64,000 bases of DNA from an uncultured Alphaproteobacteria bacterium. Its GTDB lineage: Bacteria > Pseudomonadota > Alphaproteobacteria > CAZZKF01. The position numbers were made by a program, and so were the translations under genes. Shown here piece by piece: positions 475 to 50,778 of this stretch. The DNA is taken from contig CAZZKF010000002.1 of NCBI GenBank assembly GCA_964654995.1, positions 3,113 to 67,112 of the forward strand, written 5' to 3'. Positions within the stretch are counted from its first letter, which is position 1, and each line of letters begins with the position of its first letter. The notes under the pieces are model-generated. The model was given only the letters and a program-made list of their open reading frames with translations, had not been told where the DNA came from and made no database searches.

Positions 475-2151
475 TCACATCGCGTGGGCGCTGACCTGCG
501 TGATCTTGCGGCCGATATCGAAGCGATAGAGCCGATCATGCGCATGATCGATGCGGAAATACCAGTTCTTGCCGCCGGCCAGATCGAGCCGCGAGACCAC
601 CTTGGCGTTGCGCCAGTTGACACCCAGGACGCTCAGCACCAGGCGTTTTCGCTTCTTCTTGCCGACCTGCAGATAGACCATGTAGTAGCTCCGGCTCTTG
701 GGCGAGATTGCCGGCATGGCGCCGGTCTCGATCACCGCCCGGTCGGCGATCTCGGGGTCGGAGAACAGCGTCGACCACTGAATGAGCCGCATGTCGGGGT
801 CGAAAATCATGATGTGGTGCCGGCCGCGGATGATGACATCGCGCCCCACAAGCTCGGCCGACAGTGGCAAATCCCCGTATTCGATGCCGCGCGAGCCCAT
901 GCCCAGCATGCCGCCGCCGCCCTTGGTGCCGCCCAGGCTGCTGGTCTTGGAAAAGCCGCCGCCAATGGAAAAGCCACCCGATTTTTCCTTGAAAATGCCG
1001 AACAGGCGATCCCAGCGCAGCGGCGATTCGATCCGCGCAATCCCACTGTTCAGGCTCAGGCCGACGACATGGGCGGCATCGGCAAAGATCACCAGCCCGC
1101 GTGTCCGGTCGATCACCAGATTGGTGATCCCGCCCTCGGCATCCATGTAGCGCCAGCGGACCTTGCCGCCCTCGCGGTTGATGGCGGCGACGCCAAAGGG
1201 TTTTCGCGCCTCCAGCCTGGCCCCCGTGGTAAACACGCCGCCGAGCCGGGCCAGCACCACGTCGCCCGCCACCCGCAGCTCCGAGACAAGGGGGGTGCCG
1301 CGCAGCTTGGCCTGCCACAGCGTCTTGCCGCTGACCCGGTCAAAGGCCATGACCAGGCCGGCGCCGGCGGCATAGACGGTATCGCCGTCAACCAAAGGTA
1401 CCGCCCGGGCGTGGCGCAAGGTTCCGTCGCCGGTCCTGAACGTCGTGCCCCACTTGAGGCGGCCGCTGCCAAGGTCATAGGCGTGCAGCCCGAGGTAGGG
1501 GATGTACAGGGTATCGCCATCGACGACCGCTTCGGGAAAGCGCGCCAGGCCAGGCCCCGTGCCCTTCCCGCCACGGCCGCGGGTTTTTCCGTTGCCCAGC
1601 AGCCGCGCCTTCGTACCCGTATATTTGACCTGCCACAAGGGCGCGCCGTCGGACAGGTCGTAGGCCTGCATGTAGATACCGCTGTCCTTGCGCTTTTTGG
1701 CTTTGACGTCGGCAAACAGGATCGCCATGTGATGGCTTGGCGCCGGCACGACGCCGCCGAGGCGGGCGGTGTAACCGTCGATCTGCCACGCCGTTTCACC
1801 ATTTTTCAGATCGACGGCATACAGGGTCGTCGTGCGCTTGCGGCGCTTGCCGGTGGTCACCGGGATCAGCACCAGATCTTCGCCGTCCAGGGCGTGGACC
1901 TGGGCGCGGGCGATTCCTTTCAGGTCATTCCGGGTCCAGAGAACGGCGCCGGTCTCGGCCTCATGGCGTGCCAGCCCGGCCTCGGCCATCAGCAACAGAT
2001 CGCCATTCGCCATGACCCGGTGCCAGGCCGGCGGTTTCTTGAACTCCAGCCGCCAGAGCTCGCCGGCGGTCGCCGCCTGCCCGGCCAGGACGATGCTGAC
2101 GGCGATGATGCCGAGCAGCCAGACCCCGCGCAATGCCTTGATTGCCTTCAT
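475..2151 (-). CDS. secreted PQQ-like beta-propeller repeat protein with a Gly-rich insert
   Basis: 558 aa ORF; N-terminal signal peptide MKAIKALRGVWLLGIIAVSIVLAGQA; repeated '...LYAxDxxxGxxLW' propeller blades (LYAVDLKNGETAWQ, LHAYDLGSGRLKW, VMAFDRVSGKTLWQ); Gly-rich loop GGFSIGGGFSKTSSLGGTKGGGGMLGMG. Confidence 0.65.
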   Translation of the reverse strand: MKAIKALRGVWLLGIIAVSIVLAGQAATAGELWRLEFKKPPAWHRVMANGDLLLMAEAGLARHEAETGAVLWTRNDLKGIARAQVHALDGEDLVLIPVTTGKRRKRTTTLYAVDLKNGETAWQIDGYTARLGGVVPAPSHHMAILFADVKAKKRKDSGIYMQAYDLSDGAPLWQVKYTGTKARLLGNGKTRGRGGKGTGPGLARFPEAVVDGDTLYIPYLGLHAYDLGSGRLKWGTTFRTGDGTLRHARAVPLVDGDTVYAAGAGLVMAFDRVSGKTLWQAKLRGTPLVSELRVAGDVVLARLGGVFTTGARLEARKPFGVAAINREGGKVRWRYMDAEGGITNLVIDRTRGLVIFADAAHVVGLSLNSGIARIESPLRWDRLFGIFKEKSGGFSIGGGFSKTSSLGGTKGGGGMLGMGSRGIEYGDLPLSAELVGRDVIIRGRHHIMIFDPDMRLIQWSTLFSDPEIADRAVIETGAMPAISPKSRSYYMVYLQVGKKKRKRLVLSVLGVNWRNAKVVSRLDLAGGKNWYFRIDHAHDRLYRFDIGRKITQVSAHAM

Positions 2152-2270
2152 GATTTCCCCCCCATTGAAGATCAGCCCGCGAGCCTAGCCTAGCACATTT
2201 GCGCTTGCGCCGCTGTGACCATGCGGATCCGCCCCTTCGCAAGGCCGGTCAGGGCCGCTAATCTTGCGCC

Positions 2271-2717
2271 ATGAAAGCGGTGTTGCAGCGGGTCAGCGAG
2301 GCGGCGGTGACGATCGACGGCGCCGAACACGCGAAGATCGGGCCGGGGCTGGTCATCCTGCTGTGTGTGGAACCGGATGATGATGCCGAGCGCGCCGCCT
2401 GGTTCGCCCGCAAGATCGCGCATATGCGCATCTTCGCCGATGCGGCCGGTAAATCGAACCTCTCGGTCCGCGATGTCGGCGGCGCCGCCCTGGTAATCAG
2501 CCAGTTCACCCTTGCGGCCGACTGGCGCAAGGGCAATCGCCCGGGCTATGCACGCGCCGCCGCGCCGGAGCTGGCCAAACGCCTTTATGACGACTTCTGC
2601 GCCCGGCTGTCCGGGCACGGCGTACCGGTGGTCACCGGCGTCTTTGGTGCCGACATGAAGGTTCGCCTCACCAACGACGGGCCGGTGACCATCTGGATGG
2701 ACTCACGGGATCGCTAG
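2271..2717 (+). CDS. dtd: D-aminoacyl-tRNA deacylase
   Basis: 148 aa, MKAVLQRVSEAAVTIDG...SQFTLAAD...TGVFGADMKVRLTNDGPVTIW, canonical Dtd length and motifs. Confidence 0.85.
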   Translation: MKAVLQRVSEAAVTIDGAEHAKIGPGLVILLCVEPDDDAERAAWFARKIAHMRIFADAAGKSNLSVRDVGGAALVISQFTLAADWRKGNRPGYARAAAPELAKRLYDDFCARLSGHGVPVVTGVFGADMKVRLTNDGPVTIWMDSRDR

Positions 2718-4968: not shown

Positions 4969-5988
4969 TCACGGGCGCTCCTGGTACGCGAACATCAGCA
5001 GCAGGGTACGTTGTGCCGGGTTGAAATTGTCGTCCGAGAGCAGATAGACAAGGATCTCGCCGTCTTCGCTCCGGCGGATATCGATCGCCTCCATGTTGTC
5101 GATGGAAAGCGGCGGCGCCAGGCGGGCGACCTCGAGCGGGTGCAGCTCGGCGCCGGCAACCACCGCCGCCGCCGGCAGCCGGACCAGGCGAAGCCCCAGG
5201 CCCTCCGACCAGGAAAAACGGCGTTCGAGGATCAGCAGATCGCCATCCGGCAGGCGCGCCGCCCCGGTCGGGCGGTAGCTGCCGAGGCGCCGGTAGCGCA
5301 GTTGCGCCCACGCTCCGTCGCGCCGGAGAAAGACCTGGCCCCGGGCTTCCCCCTTGCCTTCGGCGACTGCCAGGAGGCTGTTGTCGGTCAAGGTCACGAG
5401 CGCCTCGATACCGTTGTTTTTGGGCAGCTTGACGAAACCGGCCGGCGCCGGCACGGGTACCGCCGGGCCACGCAACGGCGCCTCGCCCGCGGCATACCGC
5501 CAGAGACGGTGTTGGCGCTCGAAAGCGACCAGAATCGATCCGTCCGCCATGCGGGCCATCGCCTCGGCGTCCTGTTCGCTCTTGCCTTTCAGTGGTCTGC
5601 CGGCGGTATCACGCAGGGGACCCGTCCAGCCATCGGAGAGGCCGGTCAGAAAACCATCGGCATCATAGGAGATGGCCGCCGCGAGCCAGGATCCTTCATC
5701 GGCCACCGCGATCAGCTCCCGCCCGTCGGCAGAGACCAGCAGGCCGGACAGCCCACCCATGCGGGTGTTCGGGAAGGTGATCTCGATGCCGCCGCGCCAG
5801 GCCAGGCGCCGGCCAACGCGCATCTGCTCCGGCGCCGCCCGGTTCAATGGTACCGGGCGCGTCATGATCTCGATTTTCCTGGCGCCGGCATCCGGCGCGG
5901 CCGCCGCCCAGGCTATGGCCGAGGCTACCAGAACCACGCCGATGACGGTCGCCGCGACGCCATGGCTGCCGGTGTTCGGCGGTCTCAT
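4969..5988 (-). CDS. secreted esterase-like-activity-of-phytase family protein
   Basis: C-terminal 340 codons of minus ORF 4969..6774; start at Met ~5988 gives signal peptide MRPPNTGSHGVAATVIGVVLVASAIAWAAAAP; body GGLSGLLVSADG...NNGIEALVTL...NMEAIDI resembles the phytase-like esterase family. The upstream 260 codons of the table ORF are antisense to the PP-loop gene and are not called. Confidence 0.5.
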   Translation of the reverse strand: MRPPNTGSHGVAATVIGVVLVASAIAWAAAAPDAGARKIEIMTRPVPLNRAAPEQMRVGRRLAWRGGIEITFPNTRMGGLSGLLVSADGRELIAVADEGSWLAAAISYDADGFLTGLSDGWTGPLRDTAGRPLKGKSEQDAEAMARMADGSILVAFERQHRLWRYAAGEAPLRGPAVPVPAPAGFVKLPKNNGIEALVTLTDNSLLAVAEGKGEARGQVFLRRDGAWAQLRYRRLGSYRPTGAARLPDGDLLILERRFSWSEGLGLRLVRLPAAAVVAGAELHPLEVARLAPPLSIDNMEAIDIRRSEDGEILVYLLSDDNFNPAQRTLLLMFAYQERP

Positions 5989-6132
5989 GATATCCTTGTC
6001 CCGCCTGTCGAAAGCCAGACCTCGCGGTTCAGAAAAGGCCACCGCACAGAGCTTGTCAACCGGCGCCGCTTGACCGCCGGGCCCGCCGCATGGAACTCTT
6101 CCGCCCCAGCCGAAGCCGGAACAAGGATTGCG

Positions 6133-6849
6133 ATGTCCGTGACGACACCCGAATCCAAGCCTGAAGATGCGCCCTGTCCGGTTGCCGTCTCGTGGAGCGG
6201 CGGCAAGGACAGCGCGCTGATGCTGCAGGCGCTGAGGCGCGATCCCCGGTATCGTCCGGCCGCCCTGCTGACCACCGTGACCGGGCCGGATGCGCGAATC
6301 AGCTATCACCGGGTGCGCGTCGACCTGCTCGATCGCCAGGCGGCGGCGCTCGATCTGCCGCTTTACAAGATGGTGCTGACGGCCGAGCACGCCCCCAACA
6401 CAGAATACATCCGCGCCTTCGGTGAAAGCGCCGCACGCCTGCGCGAGGCCGGGATCGACACCATCGCCTTCGGCGACATCTTTCTCGAAGACCTGCGCCG
6501 CTGGCGCGAGGAGCGGATGGCCGAGATCGATATGCACCCGATCTTTCCGATCTGGGGGCGCGACAGTGTCGAACTGATGGATGAATTCCTCACCACCGGC
6601 TTTCGCGCCCGCCTGGTCTGCGTGGATGCGAAAAAACTGGGCCGCGATTTCGCCGGCCGGCTGCTGGACCGCGCCCTGCTTGACGATCTGCCCGACGGCG
6701 TCGATCCGTGCGGCGAGAACGGCGAATACCATTCTTTCGTCTTCAACGGCCCCGGCTTTACCGCTCCCGTGCATCTGCGTGTTGGCCAGATCGAGGCCCG
6801 GGACGGGCGGTTTTACGCCGACCTGATGGTGGAGGATGCAGCGCCGTGA
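6133..6849 (+). CDS. PP-loop ATP pyrophosphatase, Dph6/MJ0570-related (diphthine-ammonia-ligase-like) family
   Basis: Real start is the internal ATG at 6133 of ORF 4963..6849 (upstream part is antisense noise); MSVTTPESKPEDAPCPVAVSWSGGKDSALMLQAL..., PP-loop SGGKDS, 238 aa typical for bacterial COG2102 proteins. Confidence 0.75.
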   Translation: MSVTTPESKPEDAPCPVAVSWSGGKDSALMLQALRRDPRYRPAALLTTVTGPDARISYHRVRVDLLDRQAAALDLPLYKMVLTAEHAPNTEYIRAFGESAARLREAGIDTIAFGDIFLEDLRRWREERMAEIDMHPIFPIWGRDSVELMDEFLTTGFRARLVCVDAKKLGRDFAGRLLDRALLDDLPDGVDPCGENGEYHSFVFNGPGFTAPVHLRVGQIEARDGRFYADLMVEDAAP

Positions 6850-7652
6850 CCGGCGTGCCCGAACGCATCGTCTGTTTGAGCGCCGAGACGGTGGATCTGC
6901 TCTACCGGCTGGGCGTCGGCGATCAGGTGGTCGGAGTGTCCGGCTATACAGTGTTTCCGCCGCAAGCCCGCAAAAAGCCGTTCGTGTCCGCCTTCACTTC
7001 GATCCGTTACGAGGTGATCGACGAGCTCAACCCCGACCTCATTCTGGCCTATTCCGACCTTCAGGCCGAGGCGGCCGCCGAGCTCGGCAAGAAGGGCTAT
7101 CCGGTGGTGCTCACCAACCAGCGCAATCTCGACGAATGTTTCGAGACCTTCGCGCTCATCGGCCGCATCGTCGGGTGCGCCTGCGAGGCGGACGCCCTGA
7201 TCGCCGATCTGACACAGCGTCTGGAGTCCGCACGGGCCGGCGCCGCCGAGGCCGGCGGTCGACGCCCGCGGGTGTTTTTCGAGGAGTGGGACGAGCCGCT
7301 GATTTCCGGCATCGGCTGGATCGACGACCTGATCCGGGCGGCCGGTGGCGAGCCGGTCTTTCCCGAACTCGCCAGTGCCCGTGCCGCCGGTGATCGCATC
7401 GTCTCACCCGATGCCGTGGTGACGGCCGCGCCCGATATCGTCATCGCCTCATGGTGCGGGCGCAAGGCGAACCTGGCGCGCATCCGGGCACGCCCGGGCT
7501 GGGAAACAATCCCGGCGGTGCAAACGGGCGCGATCCACGAGATCAAATCGGCTTATTGCCTGCAGCCCGGCCCGGCGCTTATCACCGAAGGCCTGCCGCG
7601 TTTCATCGATATCATCGACGACTGGCGGACCCGGGTGCAACAAAGCGCCTGA
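6846..7652 (+). CDS. BtuF/FecB-like (cobalamin/siderophore type) periplasmic-binding-protein fold protein without signal peptide
   Basis: GTG at 6846 overlaps the upstream TGA (GTGA coupling); VTGVPERIVCLSAETVDLLYRLGVGDQVVGVSG... aligns with the mature N-terminus of BtuF-type binding proteins; conserved W/PDIVIASWCG/PGPALI features; no hydrophobic leader. The 6708..6845 extension in the ORF table overlaps the upstream gene and is rejected. Confidence 0.65.
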   Translation: MTGVPERIVCLSAETVDLLYRLGVGDQVVGVSGYTVFPPQARKKPFVSAFTSIRYEVIDELNPDLILAYSDLQAEAAAELGKKGYPVVLTNQRNLDECFETFALIGRIVGCACEADALIADLTQRLESARAGAAEAGGRRPRVFFEEWDEPLISGIGWIDDLIRAAGGEPVFPELASARAAGDRIVSPDAVVTAAPDIVIASWCGRKANLARIRARPGWETIPAVQTGAIHEIKSAYCLQPGPALITEGLPRFIDIIDDWRTRVQQSA

Positions 7653-7688
7653 GCCCGGCGGCAAACCGCCGGGACTTGGCCACCGACG

Positions 7689-8168
7689 CTACTTGCTGTC
7701 TTTCGCCTCGATATGGCGATGCGCCAATTCGGTCTTGGTGCGGGCCAGGGTCGCTGTATAGCGTGCGAACAGGGCCTGGGCTTTCTCCGCCCCGCCTTCC
7801 TGTTCGGCCAAAGCGGCCCAGAAAGCCTCGGTGCGCGGGCTGGTGATCCAGTTGAATGCCGCCGGCCCTTCCGTCAGACGAAAGTAGGCGGCACTGTCCC
7901 AGGGACCGGTCTGAAAATCGATGATCGTCGCCGGATTGCCGGCCTTTTTGCCGGCCGGCACAAGATGGTCGTAAATGAGCTTGTAGCCCTCGTCGCTCTT
8001 GCCCGGTTTGAAGGCGATATAGAGCACGCTGTAATAGATGACATTTTCGCGCTTTTCCGCCTTCGGCAGATCGGCGGCCGAGGCCGGCAGGGCAGCCAGC
8101 ACAATGCCGACGGCGATGACGGTTGCGCACAGCGCACGCATGGGTGTTGCGATCGTGGATGCGATCAT
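7689..8168 (-). CDS. secreted hypothetical protein
   Basis: ORF 7689..8231; likely start MIASTIATPMRALCATVIAVGIVLAALPASAADL (signal peptide); no recognisable family. Confidence 0.4.
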   Translation of the reverse strand: MIASTIATPMRALCATVIAVGIVLAALPASAADLPKAEKRENVIYYSVLYIAFKPGKSDEGYKLIYDHLVPAGKKAGNPATIIDFQTGPWDSAAYFRLTEGPAAFNWITSPRTEAFWAALAEQEGGAEKAQALFARYTATLARTKTELAHRHIEAKDSK

Positions 8169-47115: not shown

Positions 47116-50100
47116 ATGCGTATCCAGCGAAAATTCACGAAGTCGGGGACTTCCCCATACGACGGCATTGAGTTCAAGACGATTTCCAGCGAGATCCGCA
47201 ACCCGGACGGCTCGGTGGTGTTCCAGCTCGATGGCATCGAGGTGCCGGCCGAATGGAGCCAGGTGGCCTGTGACATTCTGGCCCAGAAGTATTTCCGCAA
47301 GGCCGGCGTGCCGCGGCACCTCAAGCGGGTCGAAGAAGACGGCGTTCCCGACTGGTTGTGGCGCTGCATGCCCGACGACGATGCCCTGGCCGATGTGCCG
47401 GAAGATGAGCGCACCGGCAGCGAGATGAGTGCCCGCCAGGTCTTCGACCGGCTGGCCGGAACCTGGACCTATTGGGGCTGGAAAGGCGGCTATTTCGACC
47501 GTGAGACGGATGCTCGCGCCTTTTTCGATGAATTGCGGCACATGCTGGCGCGCCAGATGTGCGCCCCCAACTCGCCACAGTGGTTCAATACCGGCCTTTA
47601 TTGGGCCTATGGCATCGACGGACCGGCGCAAGGCCATTACTACGTCGATCACGCGACCGGCAAACTGGTGAAGTCGAAAAGTGCCTACGAGCACCCCCAG
47701 CCCCACGCCTGCTTCATCCAAAGTGTTAATGATGACTTGGTAAATGCCGGTGGCATAATGGATTTATGGGTGCGCGAGGCGCGCCTGTTCAAATATGGCT
47801 CGGGTACGGGCAGCAATTTCTCCAGCCTGCGCGGCGATGGCGAACCGCTCTCGGGCGGTGGCCGGTCGTCGGGGCTGATGAGCTTTCTCAAGATCGGCGA
47901 CCGTGCCGCCGGCGCCATCAAGTCGGGCGGCACCACGCGGCGCGCCGCCAAGATGGTGGTGGTGGATATCGATCACCCGGATATCGAGGACTACATCAAC
48001 TGGAAGGTCCGCGAGGAGCAGAAGGTGGCCTCGATGGTCGCCGGCTCGAAGATGTGCGAAAAGCAGCTCAACGCGGTGCTGCGCGCCTGCCATGCCGATG
48101 CGGACGGCCTTGACGACGACGCCCGTTTCGATCCCAGACAGAACGCCGCCCTCAAGCAGGCGATCCTGGCGGCCCGCAACTGCATGATCCCGGAGAACTA
48201 TATCCAGCGGGTGTTGCAGTTCGCCCGCCAGGGCTTTACCAGCATCACTTTCCGGACCTATGACACCGACTGGGATTCAGAGGCCTATCTCACCGTCTCC
48301 GGCCAGAATTCCAACAATTCGGTGCGGGTTACCGACGACTTCATGCGGGCGGTCGAAGAGGACGGTACCTGGGATCTCATCCGCCGCACCGACGGCCAGG
48401 TGGCGAAGACGCTGCCGGCCCGCGAGTTGTGGGATCAGATCTGCCATGCCGCCTGGTCGTCGGCCGATCCGGGCCTGCAGTATCACACCACGATCAACGA
48501 TTGGCACACCTGCCCGGCCTCGGGCCCGATCCGGGCCTCGAACCCGTGCTCGGAATACATGTTCCTGGATGATACGGCGTGCAATCTGGCGTCGCTCAAT
48601 CTGATGGCGTTTCGCGACGCCGCGGGCAACTTCGACGTGGATGCGTTCGAGCATGCGGTACGGCTGTGGACGATCGTGCTGGAAATCTCGGTGCTGATGG
48701 CCCAGTTCCCGTCGCGCCGCATTGCCGAGCTGTCCTATGAATACCGCACTTTGGGCCTGGGCTTCGCCAATATCGGCGGCCTGCTGATGGCCTCCGGCCT
48801 GCCTTATGACAGCGACGCCGGGCGCGCCATTGCCGGGGCGATTGCCGCGGTGATGACCGGCGTGGCCTATGAAACTTCGGCCGAAATGGCCGGCGAGTTG
48901 GGCCCCTTCCCCGGTTTCAAGAAAAACCGCGAGCATATGCTGCGGGTCATCCGGAACCATCGCCGCGCCGCCCATGGCGAGCGTGATGGTTATGAGCAGT
49001 TGCACACCACCCCTTGCGCGCTGGACATTGCGGCCTGTCCTGATCCCAGGCTTGCGAAAGCGGCCGGCGCCGCTTGGGACCGGGCCCTGGAAAAGGGCGA
49101 AAAGCACGGCTATCGCAATGCCCAGGCGACGGTGATCGCGCCCACCGGGACCATCGGCCTGGTGATGGATTGCGACACCACCGGCATCGAGCCCGACTTC
49201 GCCATGGTCAAGTTCAAGAAGCTGGCCGGCGGCGGCTATTTCAAGATCATCAACCGCACGGTGCCCGAGGCGCTGGCCAAGCTCGGCTATGACGAAGCCC
49301 AGATCGGCGACATCATCCGCTATGCGGTGGGCCGCGGCACCCTCAAGGACGCACCCGGCGTCAATCATCAGCGTCTGCGTGCCAAGGGCTTTGCCAAGGC
49401 CCAGCTCGACGCCCTTGAAGAGGCCCTGGCGGCTGCCTTCGACATCCGCTTTGCCTTCAACAAATGGACCTTGGGCGAAGATTTCTGCACCCAGGTTCTG
49501 GGGTTTGAGGCCGCCCGGCTCGATGATGTCTCATTCGACATGCTCTCGTCGCTGGGCTTCACGACGGAAGACATCGAAGCCGCCAACATATACTGCTGCG
49601 GGGCAATGACACTGGAAGGCGCGCCGCACATCCGCGATGAACACCTGCCGATCTTCGACTGCGCCAACCCTTGCGGACGGATCGGCAAGCGCAGCCTGTC
49701 GGTGGAAAGCCACATCCGCATGATGGCGGCCGTTCAGCCGTTCATTTCGGGGGCGATTTCCAAGACCATCAACATGCCGGCCAGCGCCACGGTCGCCGAT
49801 TGCGACCGCGCTTACCGGCTGTCCTGGCGCCTGGCCCTCAAGGCCAATGCGCTTTACCGCGATGGCTCGAAGCTGAGCCAGCCGCTGAATGCGGTGGCCC
49901 TGGTGGATGACGAGGCGGAAGAGGAGACGCAGGTCCGCGAGCCGCGCCTGGTGGCCGAGCGCGTGGTCGAGCGCATCATCGAGCACCGCCGCGCCAGCCG
50001 CGACCGCCTGCCGCAGCGGCGCAAGGGCTATACCCAGAAGGCCATCGTCGGCGGCCACAAGGTTTACCTGCGCACCGGCGAGTACGATGACGGCAGCCTG

Positions 50101-50778
50101 GGCGAGATTTTCATCGACATGCACAAGGAAGGGGCGGCGTTCCGCAGCCTGATGAACAATTTTGCCATCGCCATTTCGATCGGCCTGCAATACGGCGTGC
50201 CGCTCGACGAGTTCGTCGACGCCTTCACCTTCACCCGCTTCGAGCCGTCGGGCATGGTCGAGGGCAACGATGCCATCAAGATGGCGACCTCGATCCTCGA
50301 CTATGTGTTCCGCGAACTGGCCATCTCGTACCTGGGGCGCGACGACCTTGCCCATGCCGAGCCCGCGGACATGCGCTTCGACGCCCTGGGAAGCGGGCGG
50401 ACCGGCGGCGACCGGGCACCGGCGGCCAATGGCGAGGACTCGGTCATCAAGGCGGCCATGGAGCTGACCAGCACCGGCTATGTGCGGCGCAGCTTCTATG
50501 TCCTGCACAATACCGCCGGGGGCCAGGCTGGCGGGCATGGCTCTGAGGCCGTCGCCACTGCGGCCATGGTGCTGCACGAATCCGAGGCCGCCAACCTGCA
50601 GGGCAACATCAGCGCCGCCGCGGCGACGCCCAACAGCACGCCCGAAGCGCAGGTGCGTGCCGCCCGCATGAAAGGCTATGAGGGGGATCCCTGCGGCGAA
50701 TGTGGCAATTTCACGCTGTTGCGCAACGGCACCTGCCTCAAGTGTGATACCTGCGGCGGTACCAGCGGCTGTTCCTGA
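47116..50778 (+). CDS. nrdJ: class II (adenosylcobalamin-dependent) ribonucleotide reductase, long alphaproteobacterial form
   Basis: 1220 aa; [20 protein letters not shown]..., active-site region ACFIQSV...SGTGSNFS, C-terminal Cys cluster [22 protein letters not shown]. Confidence 0.9.

Follow-up and report, generated by a model that had tools for sequence, protein, structure and literature searches.

The closest described relatives of the enzyme considered here make up the DUF71-B12 subgroup, whose function is a prediction from comparative genomics (de Crecy-Lagard et al. 2012, PMC3541065). The subgroup, of which P. furiosus PF0295 is an example, is defined there by the motif ENGE[F/Y]H (section 13), with the catalytic Glu188 of Dph6 replaced by His; its genes adjoin B12 transporter genes such as btuCDF in 75 of 102 cases and stand next to cbiB in 18 of 102. 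A role in B12 salvage was predicted, and because the subgroup and bacterial CbiZ are strictly anti-correlated across bacterial genomes, CbiZ was proposed as its functional counterpart and a CbiZ-like function, not amidation, was cautiously suggested (PMC3541065). CbiZ itself, the adenosylcobinamide/pseudo-B12 amidohydrolase, is an ATP-independent hydrolase from an unrelated protein family, and homology between the two is not expected. In the literature that we searched, later papers just cite the 2012 study, and we found no experimental test of its functional prediction.

Two further systems provide the folds with which the present proteins are compared. The diphthine-ammonia ligase Dph6 (EC 6.3.1.14; PF0828, PDB 3RJZ, 3RK0 and 3RK1; PH1257, PDB 2D13) is a PP-loop enzyme that adenylates a carboxylate on a protein-borne substrate, which is then attacked by NH3. 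To our knowledge, diphthamide and EF2 are both absent from bacteria. BtuF, which binds vitamin B12 in the periplasm for the BtuCD-F importer (E. coli, 1N2Z and 1N4A; V. cholerae, 5YSC), has a two-lobe class III fold with a long backbone helix, and we take Y50, W66 and W85 of the E. coli protein to be B12-contact residues, W66 alone being backed in that role by PDB entry titles. As far as we know, little has been charted of what becomes of B12 in the bacterial cytoplasm after BtuCD has released it and before it is used or remodelled. Proteins that receive B12 after membrane transport and present or process it include the eukaryotic cytosolic chaperones MMACHC/CblC and MMADHC/CblD and the membrane protein BtuM of bacteria; according to PMC6072759, a cysteine of BtuM serves as the cobalt ligand.

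An overlapping pair of a PP-loop gene and a signal-less BtuF-fold gene

The locus lies in a window, by which we mean the whole 64-kb stretch of DNA that was analysed, and consists of two overlapping genes, ORF1 and ORF2 (Table 1). ORF1 matches Pfam PF01902 (Diphthami_syn_2; COG2102) with an E value of 3.7e-31 over residues 17-227, and this membership, together with the SGGKDS PP-loop and the ENGE[F/Y]H motif, assigns it to the DUF71-B12 subgroup. Across 31 homologues, residues W21, S22, G23, G24, K25, D26 and S27 are invariant, as are D191, P192, C193, G194, E195, G197, E198 and H200, and the invariance of the PP-loop argues for adenylation chemistry. A Foldseek search with the AF2 model of ORF1 (pLDDT 92.7) returned PH1257 (2D13) and PF0828 (3RK1) as the top PDB folds, with E values of about 1e-14 and TM scores of 0.67-0.80. 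ORF1 shares the two-domain fold and the PP-loop with Dph6, whose chemistry is likely ancestral to its own. However, ENGEYH stands in for the EGGE/DxE of Dph6, His200 is found where Dph6 has Glu188, and the TIGR03679 score is 78.6 bits against a cut-off of 197.3. In NCBI, proteins of this type are currently annotated as 'ATP-binding protein' or 'diphthine--ammonia ligase'.

Table 1. Features of the ORF1-ORF2 locus in window coordinates; the PP-loop, the ENGEYH motif, the Shine-Dalgarno sequence, the overlap and the hairpin were read directly from the sequence
Feature	Position	Strand	Remarks
Upstream region of ~100 nt	6029..6132	+	aligned with the closest relative, L163
ORF1, PP-loop ATP pyrophosphatase gene	6133..6849	+	ATG 6133; TGA 6847-6849; 238 aa
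SGGKDS PP-loop, ATP pyrophosphatase signature	6196..6213	+	residues 22-27
ENGEYH, subgroup signature	6715..6732	+	residues 195-200
GGAGGA, putative Shine-Dalgarno sequence for ORF2	6831..6836	+	within the 3' end of ORF1; 9 nt 5' of GTG
GTGA, 4-nt overlap of ORF2 start and ORF1 stop	6846..6849	+	translational-coupling type
ORF2, signal-less BtuF-fold (Peripla_BP_2) gene	6846..7652	+	GTG 6846; TGA 7650-7652; 268 aa
8-bp GC-rich hairpin, CCCGGCGG-CAAA-CCGCCGGG	7654..7673	.	directly 3' of the ORF2 stop

The putative Shine-Dalgarno sequence is kept as GGAGG in the closest relative, a locus about 80% identical (L163), where it stands 8 nt 5' of the ATG and where the pair is syntenic with an ATGA junction. 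For contigs of identical sequence, the gene calls of both JGI and Logan use the two starts given in Table 1, and dN/dS values against L163 of 0.25 for ORF1 and 0.22 for ORF2 indicate purifying selection on both. The region upstream of ORF1, which is kept in L163 although the upstream gene differs, is probably a promoter or operator and not a riboswitch. Rfam returned nothing at E<=1 for positions 5850-6250 and nothing at gathering score for the whole window, and the upstream region forms less stable structure than shuffled controls (z = +2.08); we rejected a structured leader or cobalamin riboswitch 5' of the pair. No sigma-70 consensus was seen within 6029-6132, and a promoter and intrinsic-terminator scan of 5800-7900 was unproductive. 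The hairpin behind ORF2, which sits between convergent genes, is followed by no T-run and was not called by the terminator scan, may act as a terminator.

ORF1 resembles the published subgroup in its family and motifs, its bacterial host and its linkage to a BtuF-type gene, which it overlaps. It differs in that no btuCD or cbiB genes lie near the pair, with no cob or cbi genes seen anywhere in the window, and its sole neighbour there of the B12-transport type, ORF2, is a signal-less paralog. ORF2 matches PF01497 (Peripla_BP_2) with an E value of 6.5e-43 over residues 8-236, and its AF2 model (pLDDT 95.5, pTM 0.92) adopts the two lobes and backbone helix of BtuF. Among PDB structures, its fold is matched best by V. 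cholerae BtuF, 4M7O, the heme-binding RhuT, BhuT and ShuT, and E. coli BtuF, with Foldseek TM scores of 0.70-0.79 against the BtuF entries 5YSC, 1N4A and 1N2Z. At the positions aligned to E. coli BtuF Y50, W66 and W85, the ORF2 family keeps nearly invariant aromatics. In contrast to BtuF, ORF2 lacks a signal peptide and scores 51.8 bits against the NF002894 cut-off of 234, and its family has invariant motifs of its own (RIVCL, SDLQ, NQ, FEEW, SWCG and LQPGP) and is encoded in many operons in addition to an exported BtuF. Two invariant cysteines occur among these motifs, and they may be set beside the cysteine ligand of BtuM; MMACHC, MMADHC and BtuM bear no sequence or fold relationship to ORF2, and the likeness would be one of function.

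The absence of a signal peptide was judged by a hydrophobicity heuristic and not by SignalP. The in-frame stretch upstream of ORF2 (6708-6845) is free of hydrophobic runs: over 12 residues its Kyte-Doolittle mean reaches 0.38 at most, compared to 2.0-3.35 in the exported paralogs of related loci. This stretch also falls inside the conserved 3' end of ORF1; therefore, a signal peptide for ORF2 is impossible, and the protein is predicted to be cytoplasmic. Among the 120 homologues listed, no more than about 20 residues of the called protein precede the domain, except in two with longer called N-termini, and none has a hydrophobic N-terminal run ahead of the domain. A hydrophobic in-frame upstream extension was found in 0 of 80 metagenome loci carrying an ORF2-type gene, and an in-frame stop precedes the gene by fewer than 15 codons in 34 of the 80. 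Of the 107 proteins representing clusters at 50% identity, about 94 have 14 or fewer residues ahead of the domain, and just one of the 13 with longer N-termini carries a real signal peptide.

The lack of a signal peptide is a trait of the whole ORF2 family and not of ORF2 alone, and the family is a large and tightly conserved one of signal-less BtuF paralogs; no fewer than 257 of the 50%-identity clusters have a match to ORF2 at E<=1e-30. Signal-less BtuF-type proteins fall into two independent subfamilies, and NCBIfam holds no model that captures either of these Peripla_BP_2 subfamilies or DUF6580. The JGI name for the ORF2-type partner is 'iron complex transport system substrate-binding protein'. 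Beside the signal-less protein, 24 of the 80 metagenome loci code for an exported paralog whose signal peptide is clear, which makes the signal-less one an extra component and not the binding protein of the transporter.

An earlier note on this DNA had named the two protein families, a translationally coupled GTGA junction, the missing signal peptide and an nrdJ gene in the same window. We find all of these, nrdJ lying at 47116-50778, and a search for a signal peptide starting upstream without clashing with ORF1 yielded none; the 269 aa given there for ORF2 should read 268. For the signal-less partner we found no description in the literature searched; no earlier account of a cytoplasmic BtuF paralog turned up there either. 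The terms 'signal peptide' and 'periplasmic' occur 0 times each in the text of PMC3541065, so that paper does not touch on whether the BtuF-type partner is cytoplasmic.

Recurrence of the pair and the cobalamin context of related loci

We counted partnerships from both sides, using the 80 independent metagenome loci of the ORF2-type gene and a genome scan comprising 80 DUF71-B12 loci. A DUF71-B12 gene stands directly upstream of the ORF2-type gene, on the same strand, in 24 of the 80 metagenome loci; the gap is 40 nt or less in 22 of these 24 pairs, and 7 have an ATGA overlap. In the genome scan, 11 of 80 DUF71-B12 genes adjoin a signal-less Peripla_BP_2 gene, with two subfamilies represented and either order of the genes. 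Together with the synteny in L163, the 24 metagenome pairs place the association of ORF1 and ORF2 far above chance. The partnership is facultative: about 70% of the signal-less BtuF paralogs in the metagenome loci have no adjacent PP-loop gene, about 86% of the DUF71-B12 genes from the genome scan lack a signal-less gene next to them, and the next-closest homologue of ORF1 stands alone. Homologues of ORF1 also occur in three named isolates of the scan (L067, L080 and L050, from the genera Hymenobacter, Adhaeribacter and Chryseobacterium), in none of which a signal-less gene adjoins them.

Three apparent natural fusions of the two proteins were found, P0242 and P0243 in a search with the concatenated pair and P0393 in the search of cluster representatives. 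P0243 is an in-frame candidate in which both domains are intact, including the C-terminus of the PP-loop domain; it is a single observation, and its linker holds a variable-copy 11-nt repeat. P0242, in which the C-terminal strands of the PP-loop domain are lost at the junction and whose contig carries several fragmented genes, most likely arose from a frameshift artefact. The fragmentary P0393, whose contig resembles that of P0242, was set aside as a probable frameshift artefact. Other long representatives, seen at the protein level only, appear to fuse BtuF-like domains to polyphosphate kinase or DUF1272, or to carry tandem Peripla_BP_2 domains.

A cobalamin riboswitch lies upstream on the same strand in 13 of the 68 loci scanned; as many of the contigs are short, this count is a minimum. 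The typical operon runs in the order riboswitch, ABC ATPase, FecCD permease, exported BtuF, DUF71-B12 and signal-less BtuF paralog, and homologues of ORF1 occur in TonB-receptor/BtuFCD clusters as well as in cobalamin-riboswitch operons. Across the 80 genome loci, where the identities of neighbour clusters were read by eye, the DUF71-B12 genes have as neighbours a TonB receptor (29), Peripla_BP_2 (29), an ABC ATPase (23) and a FecCD permease (19). Neighbours in related loci that Pfam confirms include CbiB, CobQ, CobU, a class I/II aminotransferase and a nitroreductase-family protein, the last being BluB-like by its context. In one locus (L159), a gene that by eye is CobA/CobO-like directly follows the signal-less BtuF paralog. 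In three loci, an unrelated transporter that by eye is modABC-like, for molybdate, precedes the family gene.

Among the corrinoid, heme and siderophore classes of ligand that the earlier note had entertained, this context favours a corrinoid, because cobalamin riboswitches and cbiB, cobQ, cobU, BluB-like and CobA/CobO-like neighbours occur in related loci; heme and siderophores are not favoured. Its pairing of a putative adenylating enzyme with a putative corrinoid-type binding protein is consistent with the evidence, and the conservation of the two genes as neighbours, on which it had staked that proposal, is borne out by L163 and the 24 metagenome pairs. Its implication that a pairing of this kind was unknown is not borne out: the clustering of DUF71-B12 genes with BtuCDF and cbiB was published in 2012, so as a kind the pairing is already a comparative-genomics prediction (PMC3541065).

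A proposed corrinoid module and the alternatives to it

Building on the family memberships, the absent signal peptide, a tight linkage that recurs, and the regulatory and genomic B12 context of related loci, we propose that the pair may be a cytoplasmic corrinoid salvage or tailoring module, in which ORF2 would hold a corrinoid and ORF1 would adenylate its carboxylate; we assign this reading a probability of roughly 0.45. ORF2 would be a BtuF paralog that has lost export and that, inside the cell, accommodates the corrinoid in its interlobe cleft. ORF1, as a Dph6-derived PP-loop enzyme, would use ATP to adenylate a carboxylate of the bound corrinoid with release of PPi, and the acyl-adenylate would then be resolved by ammonia or an amine, so that a deamidated or incomplete corrinoid is re-amidated or ligated. 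The two proteins would physically interact, ORF2 serving as substrate holder or presenter in the way that EF2 carries the carboxylate amidated by Dph6, and the gene overlap would cause them to be made in similar amounts. Several points weigh against the proposed module: the pair in the window has no cobalamin riboswitch, btuCD or cob genes beside it, the partnership is facultative, heme- and iron-chelate-binding proteins are about as close to ORF2 as BtuF is, and two of the three apparent fusions are probably frameshift artefacts. The only published hypothesis, moreover, is CbiZ-like and not amidation (PMC3541065).

A wider reading, which we put forward tentatively and with the odds against it, is that signal-less BtuF paralogs are widespread, hitherto undescribed cytoplasmic corrinoid chaperones of bacteria feeding tailoring enzymes, and that DUF71-B12 is an AMP-forming corrinoid-carboxylate amidoligase. 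At the inner side of the membrane, the paralogs would pick up what BtuCD delivers, B12 or incomplete corrinoids, and pass it on, and DUF71-B12 would repair, at the expense of ATP, deamidated corrinoids scavenged from the environment. Such an arrangement would unite, in bacteria, a cofactor-repair enzyme with an equivalent of the CblC/CblD trafficking step of eukaryotes. With a conserved, predicted-cytoplasmic BtuF paralog that is coupled to DUF71-B12 and, elsewhere among bacteria, co-regulated by cobalamin riboswitches, a concrete system of two proteins is at hand for work in vitro. If corrinoid carboxylates are indeed re-amidated or ligated, cofactor repair or salvage would gain a new reaction, with a bearing on how B12-requiring soil and sediment bacteria exploit degraded corrinoids; if they are not, the pair remains a cleaner annotation target than the present database names.

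The rival explanation that survives best, which we consider unlikely, is that both proteins are B12-related and co-regulated and yet act separately, the signal-less paralog being a general cytoplasmic corrinoid acceptor, chaperone or buffer that would, for example, accept B12 where BtuCD delivers it, at the membrane's inner face. Separate action fits the observations that the paralog often closes full btuB-btuFCD operons without a PP-loop gene (L139, L162, L137), that it also adjoins cobU, cobQ and the CobA/CobO-like gene read by eye, and that most DUF71-B12 genes have no signal-less neighbour. It does not account as readily for the nearly constant order and the short or overlapping junctions of the paired genes (22 of 24), for the recruitment of two unrelated signal-less subfamilies beside DUF71-B12 genes, or for the one candidate fusion, P0243.

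Amide hydrolysis requires no ATP, and we know of no PP-loop enzyme that catalyses it. Together with the invariant PP-loop of the ORF1 homologues and the lack of experimental follow-up in the literature searched, this makes it improbable, in our judgement, that ORF1 replaces bacterial CbiZ, yielding cobyric acid by cleaving or remodelling adenosyl-pseudo-B12 or cobinamide, with an accessory binding role for ORF2. What speaks for this published hypothesis is the strict anti-correlation with bacterial CbiZ, the clustering with cbiB and the loss of the catalytic Glu188 to His (PMC3541065).

Still less probable, we think, is a ligand that is heme, another tetrapyrrole or a metal chelate, with the pair modifying or trafficking such a compound. 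ORF2 is about equally close, in sequence and fold, to heme- or iron-chelate-binding proteins and to BtuF: its best PDB sequence match is 4M7O, deposited as 'iron-binding protein', and the heme binders ShuT, RhuT, BhuT and HmuT score about level with BtuF against it. The IsdE model gives ORF2 25 bits against a cut-off of 298. B12 context is absent immediately around the pair in the window, but across the family the context is cobalamin-specific, with the 13 riboswitches and the cbiB, cobQ and cobU neighbours; no heme-uptake context was seen in 160 loci, and no heme- or siderophore-pathway family occurs among the recurrent neighbour clusters.

It is very improbable that ORF2 is an ordinary exported binding protein, its start mis-set or its export non-classical and its adjacency to ORF1 that of a transporter operon: ORF2 shares its fold and family with periplasmic binding proteins, and of the residues aligned to BtuF Glu72 (N-lobe) and Glu202 (C-lobe), which we take to be the docking glutamates, the first is acidic in 118 of 120 homologues, but the second is acidic in just 96 of 120, btuCD is not near the pair in the window, no start codon yields a signal peptide in ORF2 or the 80 loci, upstream stops close the frame in 34 of these, and exported paralogs with clear signal peptides are already present in 24.

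An overlapping gene pair in the window

The two same-strand genes proposed by the earlier note are present in the window at the positions tabulated below. ORF1, the PP-loop ATP pyrophosphatase gene, has the length, motif and family claimed for it, ORF2, the BtuF-fold gene, has the family but is one residue shorter than the proposed 269 aa, and the two overlap in the expected GTGA. Gene calling done independently for JGI and Logan contigs of identical sequence chose the same two starts. At L163, the closest relative locus, the junction reads ATGA and the Shine-Dalgarno sequence is kept; comparing the window with this ~80% identical locus yields dN/dS ratios of 0.25 for ORF1 and 0.22 for ORF2, and both genes are under purifying selection.

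Also borne out is the B12-dependent nrdJ; apart from it and the pair, no B12-related gene was found in the window (~35 annotated genes). Around the pair lie a Phytase-like gene, a secreted-protein gene with no match in a Pfam search, and SBP_bac_5 genes. The first two are missing from L163, which is otherwise syntenic. The ~100-nt region upstream of the pair is conserved in L163 despite a different upstream gene, and in the window neither matches Rfam nor has a stable fold; L163 carries TGGAAC-N5-TTGC there, with sigma-54-like spacing, where the window instead has CGCC at -12. A queC-queE-queD cluster, QueC being another PP-loop enzyme, is syntenic in the relative (L001/L163 equivalents) and has no evident link to the pair.

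Coordinates of the genes and elements discussed (L, homologous locus)
Feature	Location	Strand	Remarks
ORF1	window, ATG 6133 to TGA 6847-6849	+	238 aa; Pfam PF01902 (Diphthami_syn_2), E 3.7e-31
PP-loop SGGKDS of ORF1	residues 22-27	+	from the sequence
Shine-Dalgarno GGAGGA	within ORF1, 9 nt 5' of ORF2 GTG	+	from the sequence
ORF2	window, GTG 6846 to TGA 7650-7652	+	268 aa; PF01497 (Peripla_BP_2), E 6.5e-43
Phytase-like gene	window:4969-5988		divergent, upstream of pair
Conserved upstream region	window:6029-6132
Secreted-protein gene	window:7689-8231	-	159-180 aa; convergent, downstream of pair; N-terminal hydrophobic segment
queC-queE-queD	window:11046-12910		preQ0 synthesis; ~3.5 kb 3' of pair
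nrdJ	window:47116-50778		class II ribonucleotide reductase
L159 unit	L159:371-2431
Cobalamin riboswitch, L159 unit	371-576
98-aa ORF, L159 unit	707-1003		no family assignment
Signal-less BtuF paralog, L159 unit	1004-1780
CobA/CobO-like adenosyltransferase gene, L159 unit	1823-2431		assigned by eye
Second PP-loop paralog	L090:1279-2112, L096:1777-2574, L106:1231-2595, L111:1233-2036; also L167, L168
DUF6580 gene (examples)	L048:8551-9241, L158:1667-2350
11-nt repeat region	L168:6340-6400, L096:5940-6000, L090:5470-5530
12-tRNA-gene array	L113:9269-11704		~2.5 kb downstream of signal-less BtuF paralog

The two protein families

The ATP-pyrophosphatase motif of ORF1 is intact on a Dph6 fold: its AlphaFold model (pLDDT 92.7) is closest to PH1257 and PF0828, archaeal structures of the Dph6 type (TM 0.67-0.80), with other PP-loop enzymes, among them QueC, TilS and LarE, far weaker. 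We reject the identification of ORF1 as Dph6 itself, since it scores 78.6 bits against a curated cut-off of 197.3 and carries DPCGENGEYH in place of EGGE/DxE. The ENGE[F/Y]H motif, invariant in 31 ORF1 homologues, is the signature by which De Crecy-Lagard et al. (2012; PMC3541065) defined the DUF71-B12 subgroup, and ORF1 is a member, displaying all of its testable defining features. That study found B12 transporter genes (btuCDF, for example) beside 75 of 102 DUF71-B12 genes and cbiB beside 18 of 102, reported a strict anti-correlation of the subgroup with bacterial CbiZ, and proposed a role in B12 salvage, which it cautiously took to be CbiZ-like; it does not mention signal peptides. Consequently, both the family of ORF1 and the tie of that family to BtuF-type genes had already been published, as a prediction, and the pairing is less unfamiliar than the earlier note supposed. 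In the literature searched we found no experimental follow-up of DUF71-B12, later papers just citing the 2012 study, and no description of a cytoplasmic BtuF paralog family. What is new is the placing of the BtuF-type partner in a large family of predicted cytoplasmic paralogs embedded in cobalamin regulons.

The ORF2 model (pLDDT 95.5, pTM 0.92) has the two-lobe fold of class III binding proteins, and the PDB structures closest to it are V. cholerae BtuF, 4M7O, the heme binders RhuT, BhuT and ShuT, and E. coli BtuF (TM 0.70-0.80). ORF2 shares this fold with BtuF but scores far under every curated NCBIfam cut-off, that of BtuF included; and whereas BtuF is exported, ORF2 has no export signal by hydropathy. 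There are no btuCD genes around the pair in the window. The N-terminus of ORF2 is not hydrophobic, in line with the earlier note's view that it lacks a signal peptide. Its frame is open upstream to 6708, and the stretch 6708-6845 overlaps the conserved ORF1 C-terminus and contains no hydrophobic segment by hydropathy.

As scored by hydropathy (12-residue maximum) rather than SignalP, the whole family shares this lack of a signal peptide. The best 120 homologues are mostly 256-290 aa long, and in nearly all of them the P-x-R-I-V-C-L motif starts at most ~20 residues into the protein as called, and no hydrophobic stretch precedes it. At least 257 representatives of 50%-identity clusters match ORF2 at E<=1e-30, and of the 107 whose N-terminus is complete, ~94 place <=14 residues ahead of the domain; among the other 13, which extend further, only one has a genuine signal peptide or lipobox. 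None of 80 metagenome loci has a hydrophobic in-frame upstream extension, and a stop codon <15 codons upstream leaves no physical room for a signal peptide in 34 of the 80.

Invariant in all 120 homologues are E14, S70, Q73, N91, FEEW 145-148, W158, SWCG 202-205 and LQPG 239-242; C10, L72, Q92 and P243 are conserved in 118 or 119, and C10 and C204 are the conserved cysteines. Judging from the alignment to BtuF, these tightly conserved loops probably line the inter-lobe cleft. Positions aligning with BtuF Y50, W66 and W85, which we take to be B12 contacts in BtuF structures, are nearly invariant Y/F, F/Y and F/Y. PDB entry titles support this role for W66 alone.

Several representatives have additional domains, possibly through gene-call mergers: polyphosphate kinase in P0374 (994 aa), an N-terminal Cys-rich DUF1272 in P0373 (323 aa), and, among P0420, P0475 and P0490, a tandem second Peripla_BP_2.

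Pairing and cobalamin regulation in relatives

Gene neighborhoods were examined by calling stop-to-stop ORFs with purpose-built HMMs. A metagenome scan with the ORF2-family alignment gave 80 loci, 24 of which have a DUF71-B12 gene upstream on the same strand (19/63 among loci having >=750 nt of upstream sequence); the gap is <=40 nt in 22 of these 24, and the genes overlap by ATGA in seven and by more in four. A scan with the ORF1-family alignment, one genome per species, gave a further 80 loci, several neighbor identities being assigned by eye, and a signal-less Peripla_BP_2 gene adjoins DUF71-B12 in 11. One of these (L064) is the window-type paralog in reversed gene order; ~10 belong to a second signal-less subfamily of ~310-330 aa starting MRIVSLLPSATE or similar. 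That two unrelated signal-less subfamilies lie beside the same enzyme argues for a functional relationship. The linkage is tight, ordered and recurrent, and the pairing, whose conservation the earlier note had made a test, is real and general. The two genes are not always together: in the genome scan, most DUF71-B12 genes stand alone or in TonB-receptor/BtuFCD clusters, where an exported BtuF sits 1.7-5 kb upstream, and P0003, which at 56% identity is nearest to ORF1 of all homologues from outside the window's lineage, stands alone.

Regulation and context in these relatives are cobalamin-specific. Rfam scans place a cobalamin riboswitch upstream of the signal-less BtuF paralog, on the same strand, in 13 of 68 loci, a minimum figure, since many contigs are short. 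A recurring operon runs from the riboswitch through a second PP-loop paralog (in some loci), an ABC ATPase, a FecCD permease and an exported Peripla_BP_2 to DUF71-B12 and the signal-less paralog. Of 80 loci, 24 also encode, beside the signal-less protein, an exported paralog whose signal peptide is clear; this makes the signal-less protein an added component rather than the transporter's binding protein. The hydropathy maxima of the exported paralogs (2.0-3.35) double as a positive control for the heuristic. Pfam-confirmed neighbors include CbiB, CobQ, CobU, a class I/II aminotransferase, DUF6580 and a nitroreductase-family protein (BluB-like by context), and the corrinoid partner enzymes encoded nearby all act inside the cell.

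DUF6580 (PF20221), an uncharacterised membrane protein, lies directly 3' of DUF71-B12 in 21 of the 80 genome loci (within L006-L081) and directly 3' of the signal-less paralog in four metagenome loci (L138, L147, L156, L158); it is possibly another membrane component related to B12. The second PP-loop paralog (PF01902), more divergent and with the motif DPCGE[LH]GEYHT, heads a btu-type operon ending in DUF71-B12 and the signal-less paralog in all six of its loci, giving two PP-loop enzymes per B12 operon, and in L090 and L096 is the first gene after the riboswitch. Metagenome contig L113 carries a dense tRNA-gene array.

A proposed cytoplasmic corrinoid-handling module and its alternatives

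With a non-exported BtuF-fold protein as the partner of ORF1, we favor a module in which ORF2 would bind a corrinoid in the cytoplasm, ORF1 would adenylate a corrinoid carboxylate, and ammonia or an amine would then resolve the acyl-adenylate. For an enzyme descended from diphthine-ammonia ligase this is the most conservative chemistry. That ligase acts on a carboxylate displayed on a protein, EF2, and by analogy ORF2 could carry the substrate carboxylate. The finding sharpens a 14-year-old prediction for DUF71-B12 into a testable two-protein system and offers a candidate for the stage of bacterial B12 trafficking that takes place in the cytoplasm.

Against it, the partnership is facultative, ORF2 is about equally similar to heme binders and BtuF, and the window itself has no riboswitch and no cob/btu context. 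The facultative pairing would suit two B12-related proteins acting independently, the alternative that survives best; the close, ordered spacing of the genes speaks for the joint module. Less probably, ORF1 has the CbiZ-like role published in 2012 (PMC3541065), as the anti-correlation of its subgroup with CbiZ would suggest; the PP-loop, invariant in the family, argues for adenylation. A ligand other than a corrinoid is less probable still, as the context in relatives is that of cobalamin. Export of ORF2 after all is improbable, since neither here nor in any of the 80 metagenome loci does an upstream start offer a signal peptide.

We also sought natural fusions by searching with the concatenated pair. 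P0242 most likely arose from a frameshift error, P0393 is incomplete and sits on a contig just as error-prone, and P0243, with both domains intact and a linker holding a variable-copy 11-nt repeat, is at best one candidate Rosetta-stone case. The tandem repeat, GGGGTCAGAMC, lies in the C-terminal tail of the PP-loop gene and differs in copy number between relatives: in L096 the stop codon and the following start overlap, in L090 the stop falls 7 nt before that start, and in L168, which encodes P0243, the stop is lost, leaving both proteins fused in frame.
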